A stretch of 20,018 bases of DNA, from positions 1 through 20,018 of the forward strand of contig JANPJS010000149.1 of the NCBI GenBank assembly GCA_031425655.1, written 5' to 3'. The DNA is from Abditibacteriaceae bacterium. Lineage in GTDB: Bacteria > Armatimonadota > Abditibacteriia > Abditibacteriales > Abditibacteriaceae. Both the position numbers and the translations under genes were made by a program. The notes beneath the pieces are model-generated. The model made no database searches, was not told where the DNA came from, and saw only the letters and a program-made list of their open reading frames with translations. Shown here piece by piece: positions 6,452 through 20,018 of this stretch. Each line of letters begins with the position of its first letter. Positions within the stretch are counted from its first letter, which is position 1.

Positions 6452-6898
6452 CCTCATATTGGCAGCCGCGAGGCCCGCGACGAAGAAGTTGTTTTGTCGC
6501 AGCCTCTTGATCTCTTTGGCAAGCGCCGGGCGCAGGCGGGTGTCGCTGCTGCCGGATTGCGCCGCGCCGAGGCAGACGCCACGCTGTCCGAGCGGTCACT
6601 GGTGGTGCAGGTCAAAAATGCCGCCGCCGACCTATATGCCGCGCAGGAAGCCGAATCGTTGGGAGAAGTTCAAGTCGAAGTGGCCGTGCTGTTCCGTGAC
6701 GCCGCCGCGCGCCGTGCCCAGCTTGGCGATGTGCCACTGGTTCAAGTGCAGCGCGCCGATTTGGAACTCTTGCATGTGCAAAACGAGCTGACGAATGCTC
6801 AGGCCGAGCGTTTGGCGCGTCAGGCCGCGCTCACTCAATTGATCGCGCAGCCGCCCGAAACCCCGCTGCGCGTGGCCCTGCCGCTTGCCACCGGAGCG
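6452..6898 (+). pseudogene. Internal fragment of a TolC/CzcC-family outer-membrane efflux protein
   Basis: PHIGSREARDEEVVLSQPLDLFGKRRA...AARRAQLGDVPLVQVQRADLE...QAALTQLI is one OEP repeat. There is no signal peptide, RBS or second repeat, and the frame runs into a palindromic element at 6901. Confidence 0.75.
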
Positions 6899-6900
6899 GT

Positions 6901-6971
6901 TGTCATTCCGAGTGGAGAGGGCGCCCGTTTTGCTCGTGCCTCGTCCTGCCCCGCCTACGCTCGGAATGACA
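6901..6971. repeat. REP/MITE-like palindromic element
   Basis: Perfect 12-bp inverted repeat TGTCATTCCGAG (6901-6912) / CTCGGAATGACA (6960-6971), extending imperfectly inward. Confidence 0.7.
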
Positions 6972-6996
6972 CGTTTCTGTTGTCCTGAAAATCCTA

Positions 6997-7010
6997 ATGC
7001 GATTGCCCTG
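6997..7010 (+). mobile_element. Possible isolated IS end (ISAs1-like terminal inverted repeat)
   Basis: ATGCGATTGCCCTG (reverse complement CAGGGCAATCGCAT) resembles ISAs1-family termini as I recall them. It directly abuts the point where adaptor-like coding sequence begins. No transposase or partner end was seen. Confidence 0.35.
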
Positions 7011-7301
7011 ACCCGCGCCCTCATAGACAACCCCGGCCCGCTGCGACCCGGAATGTTCGCGCGCGGCCAAATCCAGACTGGCCTCGGCCAGTTGTCTCTC
7101 ACGGTTCCTGCATCCGCCGTGTTGGAAGACGGCGCGGCCAAAGTCGTCTTCGTGGCCCAAGGCGGCAAATACCAGCGGCGCGAGGTGACAATTGGCAACG
7201 AAAGCAATGGGCGCATTGAAGTCAAGAGCGGCTTGAAACAGGGCGAAACCGTAGTCACTGACGGCGCGCCCTCCCTGCGCGCTCAAGCCGCAAAATCGTA
7301 A
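7011..7301 (+). pseudogene. C-terminal fragment of an RND periplasmic adaptor (CusB/CzcB-like MFP)
   Basis: TRALIDNPGPLRPGMFARGQI...VPASAV...VFV...RREVTIG....IEVKSGLKQGETVVTDGA is the beta-barrel end and membrane-proximal domain only. Confidence 0.8.
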
Positions 7302-7322
7302 TTCTCAAGGAGATTGGAAGAA

Positions 7323-8426
7323 ATGAAGCACATCAAATTGTTGATAGCCTTGTCCGCCGTTTTGGGTATTGGCCTGCTGGCCGGATGCGGTTCGCAAAAC
7401 GGCGGCACAACGGAAACCGCCACGACAGAAACAGGCTCGCAAACCATCGCCAAAAGCGGCGCGCCCGAAGGCAGCAGCGCGCAGGAAGCGGCAGCTAAAA
7501 CCGGCGAACATCACGCCGATGAAGCAGAAGCCGCCAAGACCCACACGCACAGCACTAAGCTGGCTTTCAGCAGCGAACCGGCAGCCTTGCCTGTCGGCAA
7601 GGCCGCGACGTGGACGCTGAAAATCGCCGATGCCCAAAGCGGGCAGCCGGTCAAGAACTTTGATGTCGTCCACGACAAGCTGATGCATTTGATCGTGGTG
7701 AAAAACGACCTGTCGTGGTTCAACCACATTCATCCCACTCACAAGGGCAATGGTAGTTTTGTCGTCACGACGACCTTGCCAAAGGCCGGCACCTACAAGC
7801 TCTACGCCGACTATACACCCACAGGCAAGGCGCAAGAGGTGCCGCAGCATGAGTTCGCTACCGGCGGCGCGCAGCCGGCGCCAAGCTCGGTGCTTTTGGT
7901 GCCCGACAAAATGCAGGGCGCGTGGATGACCAAAAAAGTCATCGCGCATCCCGAAGGCGAGCCGGAAACCAAAGGCGGCGCGACCTACGAGGTCGCTCTG
8001 ATGCCCATGCCAATGCCGCTCTTAGCCGGTCAGGATTCGATGCTGCACTTCCAAGTCCGCGACGCCAAAGGCCAGCCGATTAAAGATTTGCAGCCTTATC
8101 TCGGCGCGCTGGGCCATTGCGTGATTTTGTCCAGCGATACCAAAGGATATTTGCACTCGCACCCGATGGAAGGTGGCGCCAAGCATGACATGAGCAAGAT
8201 GGGCGACATGAAAAGCATGAAGCACAGCGCGCCTCCCAAGAGCGGCGGGCCGGATGTTATGTTCCACACCAACTTCCCGTCGGCGGGGCTTTACAAGGCG
8301 TGGGGCCAGTTCATGCACAAGGGAAAAATCATCACAGCGGCTTTCGTGGTCAAAGTCGGCGCCGCCAAAATCAGCGCAGCCTCAGACGGCCACAACCACG
8401 ACGAATCGAAGCCGCATTCGCATTGA
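7323..8426 (+). CDS. His/Met-rich two-domain lipoprotein, putative periplasmic copper/heavy-metal-binding protein
   Basis: AAGGAG RBS, ATG 7323 and lipobox LLAG-C. Two related domains (HDKLMHLIVV..DLSWFNHIHP and YLGALGHCVILS.D..YLHSHP), a Met-rich loop KHDMSKMGDMKSMKH and a His-rich tail. Confidence 0.75.
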   Translation: MKHIKLLIALSAVLGIGLLAGCGSQNGGTTETATTETGSQTIAKSGAPEGSSAQEAAAKTGEHHADEAEAAKTHTHSTKLAFSSEPAALPVGKAATWTLKIADAQSGQPVKNFDVVHDKLMHLIVVKNDLSWFNHIHPTHKGNGSFVVTTTLPKAGTYKLYADYTPTGKAQEVPQHEFATGGAQPAPSSVLLVPDKMQGAWMTKKVIAHPEGEPETKGGATYEVALMPMPMPLLAGQDSMLHFQVRDAKGQPIKDLQPYLGALGHCVILSSDTKGYLHSHPMEGGAKHDMSKMGDMKSMKHSAPPKSGGPDVMFHTNFPSAGLYKAWGQFMHKGKIITAAFVVKVGAAKISAASDGHNHDESKPHSH

Positions 8427-8427
8427 T

Positions 8428-8518
8428 TTTGAACCACAGAGACACAGAGAAGAAAGAGAAAGCTTTGGGCCTGAACCCAAACTTAATTCTCAAAATCTCT
8501 GTGTCTCTGTGGTTCAAA
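8428..8518. repeat. Long intergenic palindrome (REP/MITE-like hairpin)
   Basis: Perfect 23-bp inverted repeat TTTGAACCACAGAGACACAGAGA (8428-8450) / TCTCTGTGTCTCTGTGGTTCAAA (8496-8518), with nested inner stems GAGAA/TTCTC and TTTGGG/CCCAAA. Confidence 0.85.
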
Positions 8519-8541
8519 TAATGATTACTTCAGGAGACAAA

Positions 8542-8904
8542 ATGAAGTTACAAAAGACAGCCGCCCTCGCAGTGGGCGCGTTCCTCTCGACAGCCGTCGT
8601 CGCGCCGCAAATCGCTTTCGTGCACGGCAAGGCAAAGCACAAAGACCAGCACGCCACCGTGACCGTTGATGGCAACGGATACCATCCGGCGACGCTGAAC
8701 CTCAAAGGCGGCAAGCCGGTTCATTTGACCTTTGTCAGCAAAGGCAAGGGCTGCGCCAATGCGGTCAGCATTCCTTCGCTGAAAAAGACGTTCAACCTCA
8801 AGCCGGGCCAGAAGAAGGAAATCGTTTTCACGCCGAAAAAAGGACAGACCGTCGCGTTTGCCTGCTCCATGAATATGTTCAAGGGCAAAGCGGTAGCGAA
8901 GTAA
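8542..8904 (+). CDS. Exported cupredoxin-domain protein (CupA-like), 120 aa
   Basis: AGGAG RBS, ATG 8542 and signal peptide. The pattern GYHP..L..GKPV.LTF....C...V.IPSL...FTP...FACSMNMFKG supplies Cys, Cys, Met, Met ligands. Confidence 0.85.
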   Translation: MKLQKTAALAVGAFLSTAVVAPQIAFVHGKAKHKDQHATVTVDGNGYHPATLNLKGGKPVHLTFVSKGKGCANAVSIPSLKKTFNLKPGQKKEIVFTPKKGQTVAFACSMNMFKGKAVAK

Positions 8905-8957
8905 TTTTTCGTGCGCCCAACACCGCCCGCTTCGCCCAACAGATTATCCATTGGCTC

Positions 8958-8986
8958 TTGGCGCTTATACCCATGTGGGGTATATT
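8958..8986 (+). promoter_or_regulatory. Sigma70-type promoter for csoR-copA
   Basis: TTGGCG (8958-8963), a 17-bp spacer and TATATT (8981-8986), overlapped by the first operator. Confidence 0.7.
8966..8984. promoter_or_regulatory. CsoR operator 1
   Basis: TATACCC-ATGTG-GGGTATA is the C/G-tract palindrome typical of CsoR operators, directly upstream of csoR. Confidence 0.85.
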
Positions 8987-8996
8987 CTCTTAGTGA

Positions 8997-9013
8997 ATAC
9001 CCCTCATGGGTAT
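8997..9013. promoter_or_regulatory. CsoR operator 2
   Basis: ATACCC-CTCAT-GGGTAT is a second copy, centred 30 bp downstream of operator 1. Confidence 0.82.
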
Positions 9014-9043
9014 ATAAGCAAGCCTGAACTGGAGGAAACCCTT

Positions 9044-9334
9044 ATGGACGACGAATCGCGCAAAAAGGTGAAATCGCGCACAAACCGCATTGCCGGCCAG
9101 GTCGCCGGCATTCAGAAGATGATTGACGAAGACCGTTATTGCGTTGACATCTTGAATCAGATTTCTGCGGTGCGCTCGGCGCTGGACGCGCTGGGATTGG
9201 AACTGCTGGGCAAGCATCTGGAAGGGTGCGTTTTGGGACACGGCACCGACTCAGAACACCACTGCGCCAAGCCGCTGAGCGAGGAAGAATTGGTGGCGGA
9301 AATGCAGACGGTGATCGCACGATTTTTGAAATAA
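9044..9334 (+). CDS. csoR: Copper-sensing transcriptional repressor, CsoR/RcnR family, 96 aa
   Basis: GGAGG RBS and ATG 9044. RIAGQVAGIQKMI..RYCVDILNQISAVRSAL...HLEGCV carries the Cys-His-Cys ligand set. Confidence 0.92.
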   Translation: MDDESRKKVKSRTNRIAGQVAGIQKMIDEDRYCVDILNQISAVRSALDALGLELLGKHLEGCVLGHGTDSEHHCAKPLSEEELVAEMQTVIARFLK

Positions 9335-9352
9335 GAACAGGAGGTGAAACCA

Positions 9353-11863
9353 ATGGCAACAGCAACAAATACCAAAGTGACAGACCCGGTTTGTGGGATG
9401 GAGATCAACTCGAAGGACGCGGCAGGACGCAGCGATTTTGGTGGCGCAAGCTATTTCTTTTGCTCTGATTCGTGCAAAGCGAAGTTTGACGCCGACCCGA
9501 CTCAATATGCCGTTGAAGAAGCTGGCGAGGAGCATGATGTCTCCGCCACTGAAGACAGCGCGACAATGGAAGGCGGCACAGAGCGATGCGATTTGCCGCT
9601 TCTGGGGATGCACTGCGCCGCTTGCGCGGGGCGCATCGAGAAGGTGTTGAACAAAACGCCGGGTGTTGAGAAGGCGAGCGTGAACTTTGCCACGACGCGC
9701 GCCACGGTGCATTACGACGCGGCGCAGACCGATCCCATGCAGTTGCGCGCGGCGGTGCAGAAGGCCGGCTACGACGCCATCGTGCCGGAGCCAGCTTCGG
9801 AAGATGCCGGGCTGGATGAATCGTCCAACGCTGAAACGCAGGCGCGCGAAGCAGAATACAACGCGCAAAAGCAGAAGTTCACTATCGCTTTGGCGCTGAC
9901 GGTTCCCGTGCTTTTTCTGGCGATGGCGGGGCATTTGAACGCCTCATTGGAGCGGATGCTGAACTTCCCCGGTCGCGTCTGGCTGGAGATGATTTTAACC
10001 GCGCCGGTTTTGTTCTGGGCAGGCCGCGAATTTTTCACCGGCGCGTGGGCGGCGGCCAAACACCGTGCCGCCGACATGAACACGCTGATCGCCATCGGCA
10101 CCTTCGCCGCCTTTGCTTACAGCGCCGTGGCGACCTTCGCGCCGCAGATTTTCATGACGGCTAACAGTCATGCTGCAAGCGGTGGCCATGCCATGACGGC
10201 GGTCTATTATGAAGTGGCCGCCAGCGTGGTGACGCTGATTCTGATGGGCCGCTTGCTGGAAGCGCGGGCGCGGGCGCGCACATCGGGCGCTATTCACGCT
10301 TTGATGGGCTTGGCGCCCAAAACCGCGCGCGTCGAGCGCGACGGAGCAGAGCAGGATATTCCCATCAGCGCCGTGCTGGTCGGCGACATTGTTATCGTGC
10401 GCCCCGGCGAAAAAGTGCCGGTGGACGGCGAAATTGTGGACGGGCAATCGAGCGTGGACGAATCCATGCTGACCGGCGAACCGATGCCGGTGTCGAAGAA
10501 AGCTGGCGATACGGTTATCGGCGCGACGCTGAACAAGACGGGCACTTTTCGTTTTAAAGCGACCAAAGTTGGCAAAGACACGGTTTTGCAGCAGATCGTG
10601 CGTTTGGTGCAGGAAGCACAAGGCTCCAAAGCCCCAATTCAGCGCATGGCCGACCAGATTTCCGGTGTCTTCGTGCCGATTGTGATTTGCATTGCCATTG
10701 CTACCTTCATGGCGTGGTTCATCTTCGCGCCGGTTGAAAGCCGCTTAACCCTTGCCCTGCTCACCTTCGTTTCCGTGCTGATTATCGCCTGCCCCTGTGC
10801 GTTGGGATTAGCAACGCCAACCGCGATCATGGTGGGAACCGGGCGTGGGGCACAAAGCGGCGTGCTGATCAAAAGCGCCGAGGCTCTGGAAACCGCTCAC
10901 AAGCTGGATACGATTGTGCTGGACAAAACCGGCACCATCACCCAGGGAAAGCCTGCCGTCACCGACATTGTGGCGCAGGACATCGAAGAAAACGAGCTGC
11001 TGCGTTTGGCGGCTTCTGCCGAGCGGGGCAGCGAGCATCCGTTGGGCGAAGCCATCGTGCGCTCGGCGCAGGAGCGCGGCCTTAGCCTTTCGCAGCCGCA
11101 GGAGTTCAACGCCATCGCCGGGCATGGCATTGAGGCGACGGTGGACGGGCGCAAAGTCCTACTCGGCAACGCCAAATTGATGATGGAGCGCAATATCTCC
11201 GGTGGCAAAGACGAGGTTCGCAGTCTGGCTGAAGGCGGTAAAACCCCGATGCTGATCGCGGTGGATGGCCGTTTCGCCGGTATTATTGCGGTCGCTGATC
11301 CCATAAAAGAATCGTCACGCGCCGCGATTGAGCGTCTGCATCAGCTTGGTTTAGAGGTCGCCATGATGACCGGCGACAACCGCGCCACAGCGGAAGCCAT
11401 AGCGCGGCAAGTTGGCATCGAGCGGGTTTTAGCCGAAGTTCTGCCCGAAGGCAAAAGCGCCGAAATCAAAAAGCTGCAAGCCGAAGGCAAGCGCGTGGCG
11501 ATGGTTGGCGACGGCATCAACGATGCGCCGGCTTTGGCGCAGGCTGACGTGGGGATTGCGATGGGCAGCGGGACGGACGTGGCGATGGAAGCCGCCGACA
11601 TCACCTTAGTCAAGGGCGACCTGAACGGCGTGGCCTCCAGCATCGCACTCTCGAAGGCGACCATCCAAAACATCAAGCAAAACTTGTTCTTCGCCTTCAT
11701 TTACAACGTGCTGGGCATTCCCATAGCCGCAGGGTTACTTCATCCCTTCACCGGCTGGCTGCTCTCGCCGATTATCGCGTCCTTGGCGATGGCCTTGTCC
11801 AGTGTCAGCGTGGTCGGCAATGCGCTGCGCTTGCGCGGCTTCAAAGTGGAAAGGGGGGCCTGA
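9353..11863 (+). CDS. copA: Cu(I)-translocating P1B-type ATPase with N-terminal YHS and HMA domains
   Basis: AGGAGG RBS and ATG 9353. Motifs [14 protein letters not shown] (YHS), MHCAAC (HMA), [33 protein letters not shown] and MALSS identify the P1B-1 subtype. Confidence 0.96.
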
Positions 11864-12150
11864 TGGATACAGCCGAAATCTTCGTTCTTATTGGCGGCAC
11901 GCTTTTGATCGCCTTTACGCTCTGGTTTTTCTTTGGCAAGCGTGAAGAGGAAGCCGCCACTGTCACCGCCGAGGGAAAGCCGCTTTACGAGTGCCCGATG
12001 CACCCTTGGATTACCAGCACCGACCCCGCAGCCAACTGCTCGCTGTGCGGCATGAAGCTGGTGCGGCGCGGCGATGCCGGTGCGAAACACGAGGCTTTAC
12101 AGCAGGGACACGGCTCGCCGTCCTCTCATGGCTCAAAGCCGCATCACTAA
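11863..12150 (+). CDS. Small membrane-anchored heavy-metal-binding-domain protein, 95 aa
   Basis: TGATG overlap with copA. N-terminal TM helix ending WFFFGK, YECPMHP..ANCSLCGMKLV motif and His-rich tail. Confidence 0.85.
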   Translation: MDTAEIFVLIGGTLLIAFTLWFFFGKREEEAATVTAEGKPLYECPMHPWITSTDPAANCSLCGMKLVRRGDAGAKHEALQQGHGSPSSHGSKPHH

Positions 12151-12188: not shown

Positions 12189-12761
12189 GTGGAAACTACT
12201 AAAGGCATAAAGTGCGGCGCGTGCATAAGCTATGTGGCGGAAGCTGGTGGGCGCGTTTTTTTACTGTTGTGGTTGGCCGCTCCTTGTATTGTGGCAGCAT
12301 CCGATGCGCGTCCTGTTGCACCGCTAAAACTTGGCGCTAAGCAGCCTGCCCAGATCATTTATCACAAGACCTTGGAAAAGGCGTTGAAGGCCGCGCAAAA
12401 GTCCAAGCGGCCCGTGCTGGTCTACTTCCATGCGGCGTGATGCAGCCCCTGCAAGGCGATGGAGCATAGGGTGTTAACCGATGCCCGCGTCGTTGGCGCC
12501 GCGAAGAAATGGGAGGCGGTGCGCGCCGATATGGACAAGGAAAGCTCACTGGCCGTGCGCCTGAAAGTGGAGCGTCCACCGACTCTGGTATTCCTGACGG
12601 CGCAAGGACGTGCCGCCGGGCGCCACGAAGGGTATGCCGAGGTTTCCGATGTTCTCAAAGTGCTGCGGGTCGCCCATGCCCAGGCCGCGCCGCAGAAGAG
12701 CCAAAAGCAAAGCAACCTGAAACAGCAGAAACGGGCCGCTCCGAACAAATCTTCCCATTAA
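12189..12761 (+). pseudogene. Exported thioredoxin-family protein interrupted by an in-frame TGA (12438-12440)
   Basis: AGGAG RBS and GTG 12189. ORFs 11991..12440 and 12459..12761 share a frame and read LEKALKAAQKSKRPVLVYFHAA*CSPCKAMEHRVL...VERPPTLVFL...RHEGY, a thioredoxin fold with the stop at the Trp position of WCxxC. Confidence 0.75.
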
Positions 12762-14122: not shown

Positions 14123-14635
14123 ATGCGGAACGTGCGAAAGGGCATTAGCAAGCAACCAAATATAGGAGCGCCGTTGGCGTTGCTGCTGGTTGCTCTGCTG
14201 GTCGTCGTGCATCCAGCATCGCAGTTGCTTTGCGTCTTCATGCCCTGCGGGGTGTTAGCCGCAGAGCATGCCAAGCAACCAGTGCGCGCGTGCTGCCGCA
14301 AAGACAAGGCCTCGCAGCCGACAACGGCTTCCTGCTGCAAGAAGAAGCAAGCCGCAAGCGATTGCAATCCGTTACCCGACAATAGCAGGCCGGATACAGC
14401 GTGCTGTGGCGACGCTCGGAATCACAATTATGTGAGCGGCAAGACACTGCGCCTTGCGCCCAAATTCTCGCATTGGCAACACGTTTCTTATCCTCTTGTC
14501 GCGGTGCTGCTGCCCAGCATGCCGGACGTTGCGCCGAAAGTCATCCGCCATACGCTGCGCGACGGCCCCAGTTCTCCACCGGCTTCGCCTTTTCTCCGTC
14601 CCGTGTTGGGACGCGCTCCCCCTGAGTTGGCTTGA
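14123..14635 (+). CDS. Cys-rich DUF2946/CutF/CruR-like leader protein with a C-terminal RAPP arrest motif, 170 aa
   Basis: N-terminal hydrophobic segment, 9 Cys (CVFMPC, three CC pairs, one single) and a Pro-rich C-terminus ending LRPVLGRAPPELA*. It lies upstream of exported metal-handling genes. Confidence 0.7.
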   Translation: MRNVRKGISKQPNIGAPLALLLVALLVVVHPASQLLCVFMPCGVLAAEHAKQPVRACCRKDKASQPTTASCCKKKQAASDCNPLPDNSRPDTACCGDARNHNYVSGKTLRLAPKFSHWQHVSYPLVAVLLPSMPDVAPKVIRHTLRDGPSSPPASPFLRPVLGRAPPELA

Positions 14636-14800
14636 TGGGCCTGCCTCGCGGCATTGCCCTGTTCGCCTCGGCCTGCCTCCGATTGCGGCTTTCGCTTGCG
14701 GAAGCCAGAGCGGGTTGAACGCAGAACGCAATCCACCGACGTTTGACGTTCGGGTGCGGCCCGATGGCACGCATCCACCCAAACCACAACTCAGGGAGTG
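14614..14800 (+). promoter_or_regulatory. Predicted anti-SD/SD long-range stem linking the RAPP codons to the RBS of the next gene
   Basis: CCCTGAGTTG (14620-14629) is the exact reverse complement of CAACTCAGGG (14787-14796). Pairing extends over GGGAGTG (14794-14800) with a 2-nt bulge and one G-U pair. Confidence 0.65.
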
Positions 14801-14806
14801 AGTGAA

Positions 14807-15559
14807 ATGACATTGAATTTGAAAACCATTGCAACCGGCTTGGCCATTGGAGCCAGCCTGATGAACTTTGCGCCGTCTTCGGTGCAGGCGGCGGACGCCG
14901 CACTGGGCACCGCGCAGCAAGCCGGGCCATTTACCGTGACGCTGATCGCTTCGCCGCAACTGGGCCGCACCCGTTTTGAGGCGCGCGTCAGCCGCGATGG
15001 AGCTTACGTCACCGACGCGCAGGTTCGCCTTAGCCTCTCGATGCCGTATCACAAGCACGGCGGCACCTCAGACCGTCTCGCCGATGTGGACGTGAACCGT
15101 CAGGGCGGACAATACGCCGGCTCGATCAAGTTGAAGATGGAAGGCATCTATCAGGCGCGCGTGACCGTGCAAGGCGCCGGGCAAAAAGGCGCCGCCGCTT
15201 ACAGCTTCAAAGTCGGCAAGAACGCCGCAAACGCGCATCTGGGAATGTGGCATCCGGCAGGCAACTTTGAAGTGCGCTTCACCACCGATCCGGCCACGCC
15301 TAAAGCCGGCGAAAACAAGCTGCGCGTCCAAGTGGCGCGCGATGGTCAGCCCGTCAGCGGCGCGACAGTGAAGCTGCATCTTTCGATGCCGGGAATGCGG
15401 ATGGCCGGAGCGGTTGTTTCCTCTACGCTCTCACCCAGCGGCAACGCTTACGAAGGCACTGCCAAGCTGATTCATTCCGGTGACTGGCAGGCGCACATCA
15501 CAGTGAACGCCAACGGCACTAAGGGCATCGCTACCTACAACTTCACGGCAAGCGAATAA
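14807..15559 (+). CDS. Exported protein with two YtkA/FixH-like Ig domains, 250 aa
   Basis: GGGAG RBS, ATG 14807 and signal peptide (..SVQA-A). Internal repeat AG.F.V...RDG..V..A.V.L.LSMP...Y.G..KL...G.(Y/W)QA, with loops SMPYHKHG and SMPGMRM. Confidence 0.75.
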   Translation: MTLNLKTIATGLAIGASLMNFAPSSVQAADAALGTAQQAGPFTVTLIASPQLGRTRFEARVSRDGAYVTDAQVRLSLSMPYHKHGGTSDRLADVDVNRQGGQYAGSIKLKMEGIYQARVTVQGAGQKGAAAYSFKVGKNAANAHLGMWHPAGNFEVRFTTDPATPKAGENKLRVQVARDGQPVSGATVKLHLSMPGMRMAGAVVSSTLSPSGNAYEGTAKLIHSGDWQAHITVNANGTKGIATYNFTASE

Positions 15560-15569
15560 GCCTCAGCGA

Positions 15570-15610
15570 CACTCCACCGGCTACAGTGACAAACCGTAGC
15601 CGGTGGAGTG
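15570..15610. repeat. Intergenic 15-bp perfect inverted repeat (hairpin)
   Basis: CACTCCACCGGCTAC (15570-15584) / GTAGCCGGTGGAGTG (15596-15610). There is no U-tract, and a small CCCGT-TTCGG-ACGGG hairpin follows (15617-15631). Confidence 0.75.
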
Positions 15611-15652
15611 ATCGTTCCCGTTTCGGACGGGCACCAAGCGAAGGAGGCTGCC

Positions 15653-16420
15653 ATGAAACCGATTCTTTCCCGCATTTTTGTGTTGGCGTTTGCCAGTTGG
15701 ACTGCGTTCAGTTTGCTGCCGGCCCACGCCAAAGATAAGCCCTTGCTGGGCAAGCCACAGGCTGCCGGGCCATTCCAAATTACGCTCTCCACGATTCCCG
15801 TTGCGCCGCAAGCCGGCGTGAACCGCTTCCGCCTGGAAATCTTCCGCAAGGGAGAAATTGTGAGCGACGCGCAGGTGTCGCTCACCCTCACCATGCCCTT
15901 GCACCGGCATGGCGGACGTTCGGACAACGAGCCGGAAGTCACGCCGCGTCTGGTCTTCGCTAACGGCACTTATCTCGGCACTGCCCGCCTCACCATGCAA
16001 GGAGTGTGGCAGGCACAGATTTTCGTGAAGTCTGCCGCTGGTAAGGGCAAAGCGACTTACCGATTTACCGCCGGCAAAGCGGCGCCCCTGCATCTGGGCA
16101 TGGCGCACATGGCGGGCGATTTCGTTGTGACGCTTACTACCGAGCCGCCTACACCCCAAGCAGGCGACAATCGCTGTGTCGTTTCCGTCAACCGCGACGG
16201 GCAAGCGGTTCAGGACGCAAATGTCAGCGTGGATTTTAGCCGTCCCGCCAATCAGCCCCCGACTTTTTCCGTGACGCTGGCGCGCAACAACAACCGCTAT
16301 GAAGGCACCGCGACTCTGCCGGAGCCGGGCGATTGGGAAGCGCACATTACCGTTCAATCCGGTGACACCAAAGGCACGGCGCTTTACCAGTTCCGCGCCG
16401 GTCATTCACAAGGACCATAA
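15653..16420 (+). CDS. Exported protein with two YtkA/FixH-like Ig domains, paralog of the upstream gene, 255 aa
   Basis: AAGGAGG RBS, ATG 15653 and signal peptide (..PAHA-K). Aligns by eye with 14807..15559 (LG..Q.AGPF..TL, DAQV.L.L.MP.H.HGG.SD, HLGM.H.AG.F.V, GDW.AHITV....TKG.A.Y.F.A). Confidence 0.78.
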   Translation: MKPILSRIFVLAFASWTAFSLLPAHAKDKPLLGKPQAAGPFQITLSTIPVAPQAGVNRFRLEIFRKGEIVSDAQVSLTLTMPLHRHGGRSDNEPEVTPRLVFANGTYLGTARLTMQGVWQAQIFVKSAAGKGKATYRFTAGKAAPLHLGMAHMAGDFVVTLTTEPPTPQAGDNRCVVSVNRDGQAVQDANVSVDFSRPANQPPTFSVTLARNNNRYEGTATLPEPGDWEAHITVQSGDTKGTALYQFRAGHSQGP

Positions 16421-16425
16421 AGGCG

Positions 16426-19400
16426 ATGACCATGAACAGACACTTGCGCGCCCTTTGGCGCGCGATGCTGTGGCTTTTAATCTTCGCTGTGCCTTCACAG
16501 GCGCAGCACGAAGGACACGGCGGAGCGCCGCCCGCTACTAATGGAACTTCCGGCGTGCAGGCGATGGCCGGGCCGTATCGCGTGACGCTCCGCAGCGATC
16601 CGCCGGTGGTGCCGGTCGGCAAGGCGACGCTGCTGCTGAAAATCACCGACGCGGCGGGCCAGCCGATTGAAGGCGCGCAGGTGCGCGTGCTGGCGAAGAT
16701 GCCCGCCATGAACATGGGCGAAGTGGAGCAAAGCGCCACGCCCGATTCCCGCGAGGCGGGCTTATATCGCGTGCCCGCCGCCTTTGCGATGGCGGGCGGC
16801 TACGACGTGAAAATCAGCATCAGCGCCGCAGCGGGACAAGCTACAGCGACGATTGCGCTGCAAACCGGACAGAATACCGCTACGGCCCAGAAGCGTTTTT
16901 CGTGGCCGATTATCGTCGGCGCCCTTGTTCTGCTTGGCCTTGCGCTGTTAATTTGGCGTGGCAGGCGCGAAGGCACTTTCAATGTGCGCGCGGCGCTCAA
17001 TCGTCAGACCATCGGTGGCGTTGCCCTCCTGTTGCTCATGCTGGCGATTGCTGTTTATGCGGTGCGAAATTTTCGGCGGCCCGGCGCTATGACGCCAATT
17101 GAAGCGCAGGCCATGCAGATGGAGTTGCCGGCGCCGCCCGGCGTCCTGGCGGTGCAACTGGTCGAGGTTGAAACCGGCGAAGTGCGAAGCAGCGTGCAAT
17201 ACACCGGACAGGCGGCAGGCTTCGCCGAGCAGGACGTAGTGACGCGCGTGGCGGGCAACCTTCTCTGGATGCCGCTTTACGCCGGTGATTCCGTGAAGCG
17301 CGGTCAGCTTTTAGCGCGGCTCGACACCAGCCAATACGACCCGCAGGTGGCCGAGCGCCGCGCGATGGTTGGGCAGGCGCAGCAGCAGGCCGACATCGCC
17401 CGCGTGGAATATCAGCAGGCGTTATCCGGCGTGAATCAGGCGCGTTCCGAAATCGGCTCCAAACGCGGTGCCCTTGACGATGCGCGCGGACAGGATGAGA
17501 AAAGCGCAGCGGAAATCCGCGCCCGTCAGAACATGGCGCAGGATGTTTCCAGCCAGGCGGTGCGCGCCCGCTCCGAAATCACGCGGCGCCGCGCGGCCCT
17601 CGACGAAGCCCGCCACGACGAGGCCAAAGCCAAGTCCGAGGCCCTGACTAAAGCCGGCGCCCTCGAAGACGCGCGAGCCGGCGAGCGCAAGGCCAAAGCC
17701 GCCTCGCAGGAAGCGCAAACCGCGTTGCGCGGCGCGAAGGGCGCCCTCGATGAAGCGCAAAGCGACGTGACGGCGGCGCGCGAAGAAAAGTCCAACGCCG
17801 AGGCTGATGTCGCAGCGGCGCAAACCCAGACCGCCGACGCGCAGGCACAAGTCGAAGCGGCGCAGGCCGATGTGGATTATTGGAAAAACGAGATCGCGCG
17901 CATGACGGCGCTGCTCAAAGAAGGCGCGGTTTCCAAAGAAGAGTTTCAGCGTGAGCAAGCGCAAGCGGCGCAGGCCGCAGCAAAGCTGCGACAAGCGCAG
18001 GCACGAGTCAATCAGGTGCAGGCCGAGATTCGCGGCGCCGAGTCGCGGGTTCGCAAAGCCGACGCCATGATCGCCAGCGCAACAGCCAAAGCCACGCAAG
18101 CACAGGCCGCCATCGAAGGCAGCCAGTCGCGCATTGAGCAGGCGCAGGCCGACATTGCCGGTGCGACGGCGCGCGTGGCGCAAATGCAGGCCGATGTCGA
18201 AGCCGCACAATCCGAAATCAAAAGTGCCGGTTCGCGAGTGCAGCAAGCAAGGGCCGAAATTAAAGGCGCCGAAGCCGAAGCCGGCGGCGCCCTTGCCCGT
18301 GTCCGTGCCTCGCAGGCCGATGTGGACGCCGCACGGGCCGAAGCCAAAGCCGCCGCCGCAAGGGTGCGCCAGAGCGAAGCCGATGTGAGCAGCGCACAAG
18401 CGGCGGCGCGTTCGTCCGAAGCGGCGGCCCGCGCTATGCAGGGCCGTATCGCGGCATCGCAATCGGGCGTGCGCCAAGCCGTCGCTTCGCTCACCAGTGC
18501 CACGACCACGCGCGGCTACACGGAAATCCGCGCGCTCGTGGATGGTGTTGTCACGCAGCGTTTGATTGCGCCGGGCACGCTTGTGCAGCCGGGTCAGGCG
18601 ATTCTTAAAGTCGCGCAAATCAATCCGATTCGCTTGCAGGCCAACGTCGCGGAAGATGACCTAAGTGCTGTCCGTGTCGGCGCCGGGGTGACGGTGCGCT
18701 CCGGGAAAAGCACAATTCAAGCGCGGGTTACCTCCGTCACGCCCGCCGTGGACCCGACTGCCCGCACCGGCACCGTCGAGGCGATTGTGGCGAATCCGCA
18801 AAAGCGCCTATTGCCGGGACAGTTCGTAGAGATGGAAATCTTCACCGGCCAGAAGTTCAACACGGTGCGCGTGCCGTCGCGCGCCGTGCGCCAACGCACG
18901 CCGCCGTCAGGACAGGTGCTTTCCACACAGCCGCAACATCTGGTATGGCTGGCGGAACCGGCTTCAGACGGCCAGTTCACGGTGCGCGCCACACCCGTCC
19001 GCGTTGGGCTTGCCTCCGATGACAAAACCGAAGTTCTCAGCGGCTTGAAGCCGGGCCAGAAAATCGTGGTTGCGGGTTACCAGTTTCTCAAGGACGGCGA
19101 TACGGTAGCCGCCGGGCCAACGAATGGGCTACCGGGGCCAGCGAAGGCCAGTGAGCATCAGCATGGCGCGATGCCTGAAAGTAGCGCTCAACGGTCCAGC
19201 ATCGCCATCACAGAAAAAGGCTTCGAGCCGGCGCAAATCGAAGTCAAGCGCGGCCAATTGGCGCGCGTGAGTTTCACCCGCAAAACCGATGCGACCTGCG
19301 CCACCGAAGTCGTGTTTCCCTCGCTGAATATCAAAAAGTCGTTGCCACTCAATCAGCCGGTGACGATTGAATTTACGCCGCGTAAGGCAGAGACGCCGTT

Positions 19401-19446
19401 CGCCTGCGGCATGAAGATGTTCAAGGGCAAGGTCGTGGCGCAGTGA
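16426..19446 (+). CDS. RND efflux periplasmic adaptor (MFP) with N-terminal YtkA-like domain, two TM helices, a very long coiled coil and a C-terminal cupredoxin domain
   Basis: Lipoyl halves (GDSVKRGQLLARLD; IRALVDGVVTQRLIAPGTLVQPGQAIL), beta-barrel (PAVDPTARTG..NPQKRLLPGQFV), membrane-proximal domain (EVLSGLKPGQKIVVAG) and tail GFEP..C..FTP..FACGMKMFKGKVV. The start is 16426 or 16432. Confidence 0.88.
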   Translation: MTMNRHLRALWRAMLWLLIFAVPSQAQHEGHGGAPPATNGTSGVQAMAGPYRVTLRSDPPVVPVGKATLLLKITDAAGQPIEGAQVRVLAKMPAMNMGEVEQSATPDSREAGLYRVPAAFAMAGGYDVKISISAAAGQATATIALQTGQNTATAQKRFSWPIIVGALVLLGLALLIWRGRREGTFNVRAALNRQTIGGVALLLLMLAIAVYAVRNFRRPGAMTPIEAQAMQMELPAPPGVLAVQLVEVETGEVRSSVQYTGQAAGFAEQDVVTRVAGNLLWMPLYAGDSVKRGQLLARLDTSQYDPQVAERRAMVGQAQQQADIARVEYQQALSGVNQARSEIGSKRGALDDARGQDEKSAAEIRARQNMAQDVSSQAVRARSEITRRRAALDEARHDEAKAKSEALTKAGALEDARAGERKAKAASQEAQTALRGAKGALDEAQSDVTAAREEKSNAEADVAAAQTQTADAQAQVEAAQADVDYWKNEIARMTALLKEGAVSKEEFQREQAQAAQAAAKLRQAQARVNQVQAEIRGAESRVRKADAMIASATAKATQAQAAIEGSQSRIEQAQADIAGATARVAQMQADVEAAQSEIKSAGSRVQQARAEIKGAEAEAGGALARVRASQADVDAARAEAKAAAARVRQSEADVSSAQAAARSSEAAARAMQGRIAASQSGVRQAVASLTSATTTRGYTEIRALVDGVVTQRLIAPGTLVQPGQAILKVAQINPIRLQANVAEDDLSAVRVGAGVTVRSGKSTIQARVTSVTPAVDPTARTGTVEAIVANPQKRLLPGQFVEMEIFTGQKFNTVRVPSRAVRQRTPPSGQVLSTQPQHLVWLAEPASDGQFTVRATPVRVGLASDDKTEVLSGLKPGQKIVVAGYQFLKDGDTVAAGPTNGLPGPAKASEHQHGAMPESSAQRSSIAITEKGFEPAQIEVKRGQLARVSFTRKTDATCATEVVFPSLNIKKSLPLNQPVTIEFTPRKAETPFACGMKMFKGKVVAQ

Positions 19447-20018
19447 AAATCAATTTCGGCGCCGCGCGGCCTTCGATTCAGCGTTGGTCCATCGAGCATC
19501 CCTACACGGTCATCGCGTTTTACGTCGCGGTGGTGGCACTGGCGTTTATCGCCATTACGCAGCAGGTGCCGCGCCGCTTCGCGCCTTACATTGAAAGCCC
19601 GCTCGTCGGCGTGGTCACCACGATGCCGGGCCTCTCGGCACAGGAGATGGAAACCTATATCTCCAAGCCGATTGAGGAGCAATTGGTCAACATCAAAGGT
19701 TTGCGTTACATTCGCTCCACCTCGCAGGACGGCTTTTCGATTGTCTCCATCGAGTTTGAATACGGGACAGACATCCGCAAGGCGATTTTCGATGTGCAGG
19801 CACTGATGAACGTCATTCAATCGAGCCTGCCCATTACCGGCTCGAATCTGAAACCTTCGTGGGTTGTGCCGATTGACCCGCTGAATATCCCGATTCTCTC
19901 GCTGAGTTTGCGCGGCGACCCGGCGCAGGGCTGGGACATGGCGAAGGTGCGGGAGTTCGCCGACAACACCGTCGTCAACCGCCTGAAAACTGTGCCCAAC
20001 GTGTATTCGATTGTGCCG
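19443..20018 (+). CDS. RND efflux permease (AcrB/CusA/CzcA family), 5' part only
   Basis: GTGA overlap with the adaptor stop. Manual translation: MKINFGAARPSIQRWSIEHPYTVIAFYVAVVALAFIAITQQVPRRFAPYIESPLVGVVTTMPGLSAQEMETYISKPIEEQLVNIKGLRYIRSTSQDGFSIVSIEFEYGTD..., open to the window end. Confidence 0.92.
   Translation, partial: MKINFGAARPSIQRWSIEHPYTVIAFYVAVVALAFIAITQQVPRRFAPYIESPLVGVVTTMPGLSAQEMETYISKPIEEQLVNIKGLRYIRSTSQDGFSIVSIEFEYGTDIRKAIFDVQALMNVIQSSLPITGSNLKPSWVVPIDPLNIPILSLSLRGDPAQGWDMAKVREFADNTVVNRLKTVPNVYSIVP

Follow-up and report, generated by a model that had tools for sequence, protein, structure and literature searches.

A probable copper efflux pump of an Abditibacteriaceae bacterium with a predicted 30-nm adaptor hairpin, and lengthened spanning proteins across Armatimonadota

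We analysed the whole of contig JANPJS010000149.1 (C149; 20,018 nucleotides, hereafter the window) from the Abditibacteriaceae bacterium assembly GCA_031425655.1, in the phylum Armatimonadota. The contig ends within the gene for a permease of the resistance-nodulation-division (RND) type, and the gene directly before it encodes a periplasmic adaptor whose lipoyl domain is split by a very long alpha-hairpin. We consider it probable that this protein is the adaptor of an RND pump, likely for copper, and that its straight hairpin of about 30 nm forms a tube spanning a wide periplasm (near 41-46 nm), which would be roughly double the width found in E. coli. A broader proposition, which we favour with less assurance, is that the Armatimonadota encode the width of their envelope: every adaptor, TamB, and MlaD would lengthen in family-specific steps, the width (~30 to >45 nm) would be readable from sequence, and the pump described here would cross a thick wall with a 30-nm, twelve-helix tube, more than twice as long as the longest adaptor hairpin that we found described. 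The original prediction, made from the letters of the window and their translations, had recognized the long hairpin; it missed the lineage-wide nature of the trait, and also two domains suggestive of copper, one YtkA-like and one resembling CupA.

The first half of the lipoyl domain ends at residue 300 and the second half starts at residue 698, leaving 397 residues between them. The original prediction gave about 390 residues, essentially free of proline (its span, 17335-18515, holds 394), and this description was accurate: the composition is 27.5% Ala, 11.3% Gln, 9.8% Arg, and 8.6% Glu, with a single Pro at the very start of the hairpin. The tip motif was also correctly placed at the centre. 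It begins at residue 485 (nt 17878), and the two arms, expected at about 190 residues each, are equal at 199 and 199 residues when counted to the centre residue 499. The period of hydropathy is 3.50 in one arm and 3.49 in the other, values matched by one of 2000 shuffles in each case, and the heptad register is unbroken through 28 repeats in both arms. In the C-terminal arm, one heptad position is occupied by a large hydrophobic residue in 21 of the 28 repeats, and two others by Ala in 18 and 20; this broad small-residue face would suit two-sided packing. Covariation between the arms is best along anti-diagonals offset by +4 and -3 from exact symmetry in all three length classes, with z-scores of only 1.9-2.7 that recur every seven residues. 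The length calculated from the residue count, at 1.485 Å per arm residue, is 29.1 nm, and scaling from the EmrA of Aquifex (168 residues, 127 Å) gives 30 nm. The original estimate for a straight hairpin, about 28 nm, was slightly low. The hairpin corresponds to that of AcrA plus 23 heptads per arm and is predicted to exceed the longest solved hairpins 2.4-fold.

Homologues were selected from 8000 scored candidates of 553-1761 aa. The best 120 of 232 matches were used, a set in which relatives with short hairpins could not appear. In the 121 proteins measured (the query and the 120 matches, one match being the query gene itself), the lengths between the lipoyl halves were 173, 215, 229, 271, 299, 313, 355, and 397 residues, all of them 5 mod 7, and length changed only in steps of 14. 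The arms were equal in all 118 proteins in which the tip was located (in three of the 121 it was not); a separate search pattern for the tip matched 96 of 120 proteins and in 94 of them placed it midway. For the six pairs of length classes with good sampling, the blocks inserted in one arm and in the other lay at distances from the tip that overlapped (e.g., 53 and 56 for the change from 215 to 271), and two of three single-member length classes did not show such matched positions.

For P0008, a relative from the 355-residue class, an AlphaFold prediction based on 25 alignment rows of the same length gave two unbroken helices, 304-473 and 479-644 (170 and 166 residues), joined by one short turn. 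Taken together, the equal arms, the 14-residue steps, the unbroken heptads, and the unbroken helices of P0008 argue for a straight hairpin of ~29-30 nm. The heptad analysis and the model of P0008, checks of the kind that the original prediction had suggested, favour a straight rod. A straight two-helix hairpin is our best reading, and the folded-back bundle, which had been offered as another option, is disfavoured by the same evidence and by the midpoint position of the tip. The ESM Atlas returned only generic adaptor clusters of 356-469 aa.

The long hairpin is not specific to this gene. All six adaptors measured by profiles in the window's genome have 358-448 residues between the lipoyl halves; an RND permease is the neighbour of five of them, and a likely ABC transporter that of the sixth. 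In a lipoyl-domain search of 40 relatives, the best 150 of 246 matches were considered. After leaving out three rows from the window's own genome, 15 frames below 290 aa, five above 1100 aa, and three at contig starts, 120 of the remaining 124 were taken up and 107 could be measured, which together with the genome's own six gives 113 adaptors from 38 genomes; 111 of these have at least 190 residues. When compared with taxonomy, another check named at the outset, the lengths were 316-448 in the window's own family (n = 61), 284-335 in the rest of the class (n = 9), and 57-321 with a median of 243 in the rest of the phylum (n = 43). A tree calculated from the non-hairpin parts contained six clades, with supports of 0.63-1.0, that have members both inside and outside the family. 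In all six, the family members were longer than every outside member (outside to family: 230 to 386, 226 to 324, 290 to 358-448, 267 to 316-379, 315 to 392, and 292 to 376-432), so that six orthogroups lengthened in parallel within the family.

The window's own orthogroup was matched in 100 of 301 genomes of the phylum. The 69 proteins measured, from 70 of 102 matches, have hairpins of 187-397 residues that are nearly fixed within families (215 in 32 of the 69); 60 are 5 mod 7, that of the window is the longest, and two separate clades lengthened within the family. The hairpins of controls were 75-121 residues in E. coli, 117-180 in cyanobacteria, 69-177 in two planctomycetes, and 61-180 in one myxococcal genome. 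E. coli AcrA and CusB scored under the profile cut-offs, and the 75 residues of AcrA were counted by hand; two plasmids serving as Deinococcus/Thermus controls had no lipoyl-domain match. We conclude that the long hairpin is a genome-wide and lineage-wide trait. The window's genome (G000) also encodes a seventh adaptor-like protein (C171:17065-19137, + strand) with about 315 residues between the lipoyl halves and nine Pro; no transporter was recognized among the long frames flanking it. In two CzcB-like adaptors of this genome (C16:19576-21966, 448 residues; C256:7515-10139, - strand, 358 residues), a tip-like Ala-Gly-x-Tyr...Pro motif recurs every ~45-52 residues of the N-terminal arm with matching repeats in the C-terminal arm; these could be kinks in a rod or true fold-backs.

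TamB and MlaD were examined as independent spanning proteins. TamB of the window's genome has 2411 aa versus 1259 in E. coli, and MlaD has 637 aa versus 419 in Veillonella, whose periplasm measures 24.2 nm (excerpt of PMC10665443). For the first 40 relatives, representing 14 families, TamB length correlated by family with the median hairpin of all adaptors (rho 0.67). Long TamB proteins were predicted beforehand for two families with long hairpins, f18 (383) and f34 (315), and the prediction was borne out for both: the TamB frames were 2843 and 2894 in f18 (a third frame has 310) and 2008-2261 in all six cases in f34. In the other, short-hairpin families they were 1506-1861, except for one frame of 887, and four of the 40 genomes had no TamB match. 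The other adaptors were likewise long in f18 (380-441) and f34 (316-380) versus 166-285 in the short-class family f31 (13 of 20 loci measured, two lipoyl carriers dropped, five unmeasured). Over all families, the Spearman coefficients between hairpin length and the lengths of TamB and MlaD were 0.81 (24 families) and 0.71 (26 families), respectively; without the window's class they were 0.69 and 0.64. Contrasts on the adaptor gene tree had the same sign in 15 of 20 cases for TamB and 20 of 25 for MlaD. Because the other adaptors, TamB, and MlaD lengthened in step, the hairpin likely reflects an unusually wide gap between the membranes. A 626-aa protein of the same genome (C124:31689-33569, - strand), with many beta-jellyroll repeats and two LptA-type matches in an lpt-like cluster, is a candidate for a lengthened lipopolysaccharide bridge.

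A periplasm of 55.5 +/- 3.5 nm with ~12.5 nm of peptidoglycan was measured by cryo-EM in Fervidibacter sacchari, which is placed in Armatimonadota (excerpt of PMC11535203); the supplement of that paper lists nine F. sacchari adaptors by accession (among them WP_259101960.1, WP_259093621.1, and WP_259095821.1) without lengths. The wide periplasm that the original prediction listed among its options is supported by this measurement, by the six long adaptors, and by the covariation with TamB and MlaD. The predicted span of the pump, 41-46 nm, is the sum of the quoted spans of tripartite pumps, 17-22.5 nm, and 23.9 nm. The periplasm of Deinococcus is 121 nm wide. In E. coli under osmotic stress the membranes are 30-32 nm apart, centre to centre (excerpt of PMC8824477), which also exceeds the span of its own pump; local narrowing is therefore plausible, and our claim is one of scaling and not of an exact ruler.

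The porins with surface-layer homology (SLH) domains bear on where the additional length would be. Their tether consists of a short coiled coil with 0-19 collagen-like triplets. That it is short and does not scale with the hairpin suggests that the outer face of the wall may be near the end of TolC, and that the extra hairpin length would cross the peptidoglycan and the space beneath it. The collagen-like Gly-X-Y run lies between the SLH domain and the coiled coil of these OmpM/SlpA-like porins (G000:C264:3760-5724, - strand, with 12 triplets, and loci L191-L219, with 0-19). Two papers on the SLH-porin tether that were checked do not mention collagen in their main text; OmpM homologues in Armatimonadetes have been reported (excerpt of bioRxiv 10.1101/2021.05.31.446380).

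The assignment to the adaptor family rests on several lines of evidence. The reading frame passes the family model TIGR01730 (168 bits versus a cut-off of 94.9), the top Foldseek matches of its predicted model are AcrA, MexA, and MacA, and Pfam, sequence anchors, AlphaFold, and Foldseek support a split lipoyl domain flanking the central hairpin, followed by beta-barrel and membrane-proximal domains (Table 1). The N-terminus is likely a signal peptide, judging from its sequence, and the two hydrophobic helices likely anchor the protein in the inner membrane. In the YtkA-like domain, M92, M95, M97, and M122 are kept in at least 90% of 56 aligned proteins. The cupredoxin domain (aa 918-1005) matches CupA of S. 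pneumoniae (2mry/4f2e) with an E-value of 4e-13, and C958, C994, M996, and M998 align in the pattern Cys ... Cys-Gly-Met-x-Met. We named R492, L496, and S503 of the tip using what we take to be the spacing of the RLS motif. This spacing is the same as in the E. coli AcrA sequence, R492 and L496 are invariant in all 56 aligned proteins, and the motif bears this name in an excerpt of PMC4446572. Three narrower assignments were rejected. As a heavy-metal efflux (HME) adaptor of the CusB/CzcB type, the protein scores 130 bits with TIGR00999 (cut-off 319); as an HME permease, the partner, scanned minus ~145 N-terminal residues, scores 283 with TIGR00914 (cut-off 701); and as a HlyD-type adaptor of a type 1 secretion system, the protein scores 44.8 bits with TIGR01843 (cut-off 208.65) and has an RND partner.

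Table 1. Features of the window; rows inside the adaptor gene follow the row for the gene itself
Feature	Position	Strand	Basis or remark
YtkA-domain protein and stand-alone cupredoxin	7314..8904	+	upstream of the repressor
Metal-sensing repressor	8951-9334	+	PF02583
Copper-translocating P-type ATPase	9344-11863	+	TIGR01511, 631 bits versus cut-off 397
Small HMBD protein	11863-12150	+	PF19335
Two genes for secreted double-YtkA proteins	14798..16420	+	PF13115 twice in each; likely same operon
RND periplasmic adaptor (membrane fusion protein), 1006 aa, with fused YtkA and cupredoxin domains	16426..19446	+
YtkA-like domain, aa 48-130	16567..16815	+	PF13115, 46 bits; after likely signal peptide; likely periplasmic
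Two likely transmembrane helices, aa 160-182 and 193-215	16903..17070	+	hydrophobic stretches; helices in AlphaFold model
Lipoyl (barrel-sandwich) domain, first half	17227..17325	+	sequence anchors; AlphaFold strands
Antiparallel alpha-hairpin, 397 residues, predicted ~29-30 nm	17326..18516	+
Hairpin tip with R492, L496, S503, turn centred on G499	17899..17934	+	RLS-type TolC-contact motif
Second lipoyl half, beta-barrel, membrane-proximal domain	18517..19116	+	PF13437, PF16576; AlphaFold
CupA-like cupredoxin domain with C958, C994, M996, M998	19177..19440	+	PF13473
RND permease, 5' part	19443..20018	+	remainder on contig C147 (141-nt overlap with C149)

The original prediction had asked whether a TolC gene follows the permease. 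On the overlapping contig C147, the permease is followed by a 191-aa open reading frame (C147:2922-3497), which has no Pfam or NCBIfam match, and then by a 462-aa gene of the TolC family (C147:3837-5225). The TolC protein has two OEP repeats of ordinary length, and the permease is of ordinary size too. The idea of a self-formed conduit is right only in part: most of the tube would consist of adaptor, but downstream of the permease there is a gene for TolC. The same gene order (adaptor, permease, small frame at L003:8642-9271, TolC) was found in locus L003 of an Abditibacteriaceae bacterium, the one full-length relative among five loci in a profile search of genome contigs. The permease shares 45% identity with one encoded in a heavy-metal cluster on a Leptolyngbya plasmid, itself uncharacterised, and the cyanobacterial relatives adjoin heavy-metal regulators and a P-type ATPase. 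Orthology to Cus or to Synechocystis CopBAC was rejected, since the permease shares only 22% identity with CusA and 24% with CopA of Synechocystis. From the neighbouring genes and the fused domains, the cargo is likely copper.

In the mechanism that we propose, which is based on the neighbouring genes and the domains, the P-type ATPase would deliver Cu(I) to the periplasm. The tethered YtkA and CupA-like domains would keep Cu(I) close to the inner membrane and hand it over to the permease, a putative role, and the permease would expel it through the adaptor tube. Six copies of the adaptor would form this long tube, joining a normal-sized permease to a normal-sized TolC. By analogy with AcrAB-TolC and MacAB-TolC, it would be a hexamer with a sealed helical barrel, docked tip to tip through the RLS motif.

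The length of the hairpin could be an artefact of assembling a repetitive coding region, given the low-complexity, Ala-rich sequence and a metagenome-derived genome of 327 contigs. Against this, the region contains no tandem array with a period above 10 nt, its internal repeats are only 66-93% similar and are for the most part spaced by multiples of 21 nt, the insertions are matched in both arms, and two relatives from other assemblies, 89-90% identical, also have 397 residues. The misassembly that the original prediction had named as a possible refutation is itself refuted by these independent homologues, and we give it practically no credence. A second alternative is a hairpin that, like that of CusB (excerpts of PMC4158417 and PMC4446572), is folded back on itself as a short bundle of several helices, in a pump spanning an ordinary periplasm. 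The repeated tip-like motifs with Pro in the two CzcB-like paralogues are possible turns, and in the AlphaFold model of the window's own protein, based on a mixed-length alignment of 56 rows, both arms are broken at mirror positions, 365-381 and 618-629, with confidence below 50. These breaks fall near sites where most alignment rows lack the newest 21-residue blocks. The single Pro, the lack of a register break, the equal arms, the 14-residue steps, and the unbroken 170- and 166-residue helices obtained from the same-length alignment make folding back very unlikely. It is also conceivable, if unlikely, that the same long tube exports another metal (Ag, Zn, Co, or Ni) or an organic compound, which would be compatible with a wide envelope. 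The permease, with its low identity to CusA and to Synechocystis CopA, scores under every RND subfamily cut-off, including that for CusA/CzcA, and best on multidrug models. The periplasmic Met triad of CusA, which we take to be positions 573, 623, and 672, aligns to F, V, and V, with a Met 1-3 positions off each, in an alignment at 22% identity. Copper is favoured by the Cys/Cys/Met/Met residues of the CupA-like domain and the Met-rich YtkA domain on the adaptor, by the copper ATPase and metal repressor nearby, and by the heavy-metal regulators and P-type ATPase beside the cyanobacterial relatives with the 45% identical permease.

Finally, a straight hairpin might be unmatched to the width of the envelope. 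Heptad duplications would then have been tolerated, the surplus being taken up by tilt, bowing, or sliding along TolC; the envelope would be modestly wider, and the TamB and MlaD trend would result from shared ancestry or a general lengthening of proteins. We consider this unlikely, although several observations weigh in its favour and against the wide envelope. Hairpins in one genome differ by 90 residues. Nothing correlated within the window's family (rho -0.08), and in the first 14 families MlaD was uncorrelated with the all-adaptor medians (rho 0.22). In genome G040, the TamB and MlaD frames (2882 and 797) are among the longest seen, yet its adaptors have 230 and 290 residues; this genome may be a bin of mixed origin, or the scaling may truly fail in it. 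The families are related, the TamB and MlaD figures are open-frame lengths, the contrasts were calculated on a gene tree with weak deep support, and the statistics are rough: four TamB frames below 1500 were dropped, and with these included rho is 0.74 (family maximum) or 0.53 (genome level), and the contrast r falls from 0.81 to 0.44 when one frame cut by a contig end is retained. The controls for general protein lengthening are limited to TolC and the permease, and controls from other phyla are few (the profiles measured 14 of 27 non-Armatimonadota loci, and some of the remaining 13 have long frames). One homologue of the 355 class carries a Chloroflexota label from its source, two other source-named homologues being Armatimonadota. 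We found no envelope width for the window's family. By the same arithmetic, a gap of 55.5 nm would need ~500-530 residues; the longest hairpin seen has 448, so either the ruler is not exact or the pumps are located at narrowed sites. The SLH-porin stalk was rejected as a second ruler, as its spacer was unrelated to hairpin length (29 of 30 loci read). On the other side, six orthogroups lengthened in parallel, as did two distinct clades of the window's orthogroup inside the family; each family keeps to its own length (32 of the 69 orthologues have 215), and the RLS tip is conserved. The periplasmic part of TolC, ~10 nm, could absorb less than half of the extra 24 nm, and the out-of-sample TamB prediction for f18 and f34 held.

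The adaptor shares domain order, fold, tip motif, and an operon with permease and TolC with AcrA, MexA, and MacA; unlike these, it has the extra YtkA domain, the two membrane helices, and the C-terminal cupredoxin. Their hairpins measure 47-67 Å (excerpt of PMC4158417) versus the ~29-30 nm predicted here. AcrA (75), MacA (89), and several cyanobacterial relatives (117; others have 118) are much shorter; the values 75, 89, and 117 belong to the same 5-mod-7 series. EmrA of Aquifex aeolicus (PDB 4TKO), called exceptionally long, is likewise an antiparallel two-stranded coiled coil extended by heptads; its 168 residues span 127 Å with heptad shifts (excerpt of PMC4158417), whereas the window's hairpin has 2.4 times this length and keeps its register throughout. 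EmrA is long because its major facilitator superfamily partner lacks a periplasmic domain; the partner here is an RND permease that has one. E. coli CusCFBA and Synechocystis CopBAC, a copper RND pump (excerpt of PMC4335983), share with the window's pump a likely role in copper export and a metal chaperone beside or on the adaptor. In contrast, the CusB hairpin is a folded 27-Å bundle, and the chaperone domain here is CupA-like and fused, not CusF. Among plasmid records, the closest named relatives outside the phylum are BAU15778/BAU15777 of Leptolyngbya NIES-3755, with the 45% identical permease; RND clusters of this type have a YtkA/FixH-type domain on or beside the adaptor, but a hairpin of just 117-118 residues. 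CupA itself is a free-standing protein that acts as the chaperone of a P-type ATPase. Its cupredoxin fold (PDB 2MRY, 4F2E) and aligned Cys, Cys, Met, and Met are shared by the window's domain, which is instead fused to the periplasmic end of the adaptor. Precedents for length matching exist in Terrabacteria: the long MlaD of Veillonella parvula, a lipid bridge, has a helical length of 23.5 nm versus an envelope distance of 24.2 nm (excerpt of PMC10665443), and SlpA of Deinococcus, a wall tether, has 28 nm versus 30 nm (PMC9388160). The case described here concerns an efflux adaptor family and scaling across a phylum.

Three further stretches of the window lie upstream of the pump genes, all on the + strand. 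Positions 14123-14635, upstream of the YtkA genes, encode a protein of 170 aa that is likely secreted, contains several Cys-Cys pairs, and matches no family. A thioredoxin-like frame at 12225-12761 contains a TGA at 12438-12440, just before a CxxC and presumably at the site of the Trp usual in the thioredoxin family; a nonsense change or an error is likelier than selenocysteine. Positions 6459-7301 hold a remnant of a TolC-adaptor operon, in which part of a TolC gene, with 68-74% similarity to its paralogues on C16 and C256, passes via a short genome-repeated element (~6915-7010) into the last part of a CzcB-like adaptor.

That adaptor hairpins vary by heptads was already known (PMC4446572 and PMC8277102, in excerpts), as were the length-matched MlaD and SlpA; the mostly open-access literature that we searched contained no prior description of long adaptors in Armatimonadota. 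New here are the parallel growth of all paralogues, the covariation with TamB and MlaD together with a prediction that was borne out, and the connection with an envelope whose width has been measured. For most Terrabacterial diderms it is an open question how machines that cross the envelope manage where it is far wider than in E. coli. This pump appears to stretch its adaptor only, by matched heptad blocks, leaving permease and TolC unchanged, and this appears to have happened independently in at least six paralogous families. The natural series of hairpins from 75 to 397 residues offers material for finding out whether the length of a pump determines the spacing of the membranes, adapts to it, or narrows it locally. 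If length tracks width, the adaptor hairpin would be a gauge of periplasm width that can be read from the sequences of uncultured bacteria.

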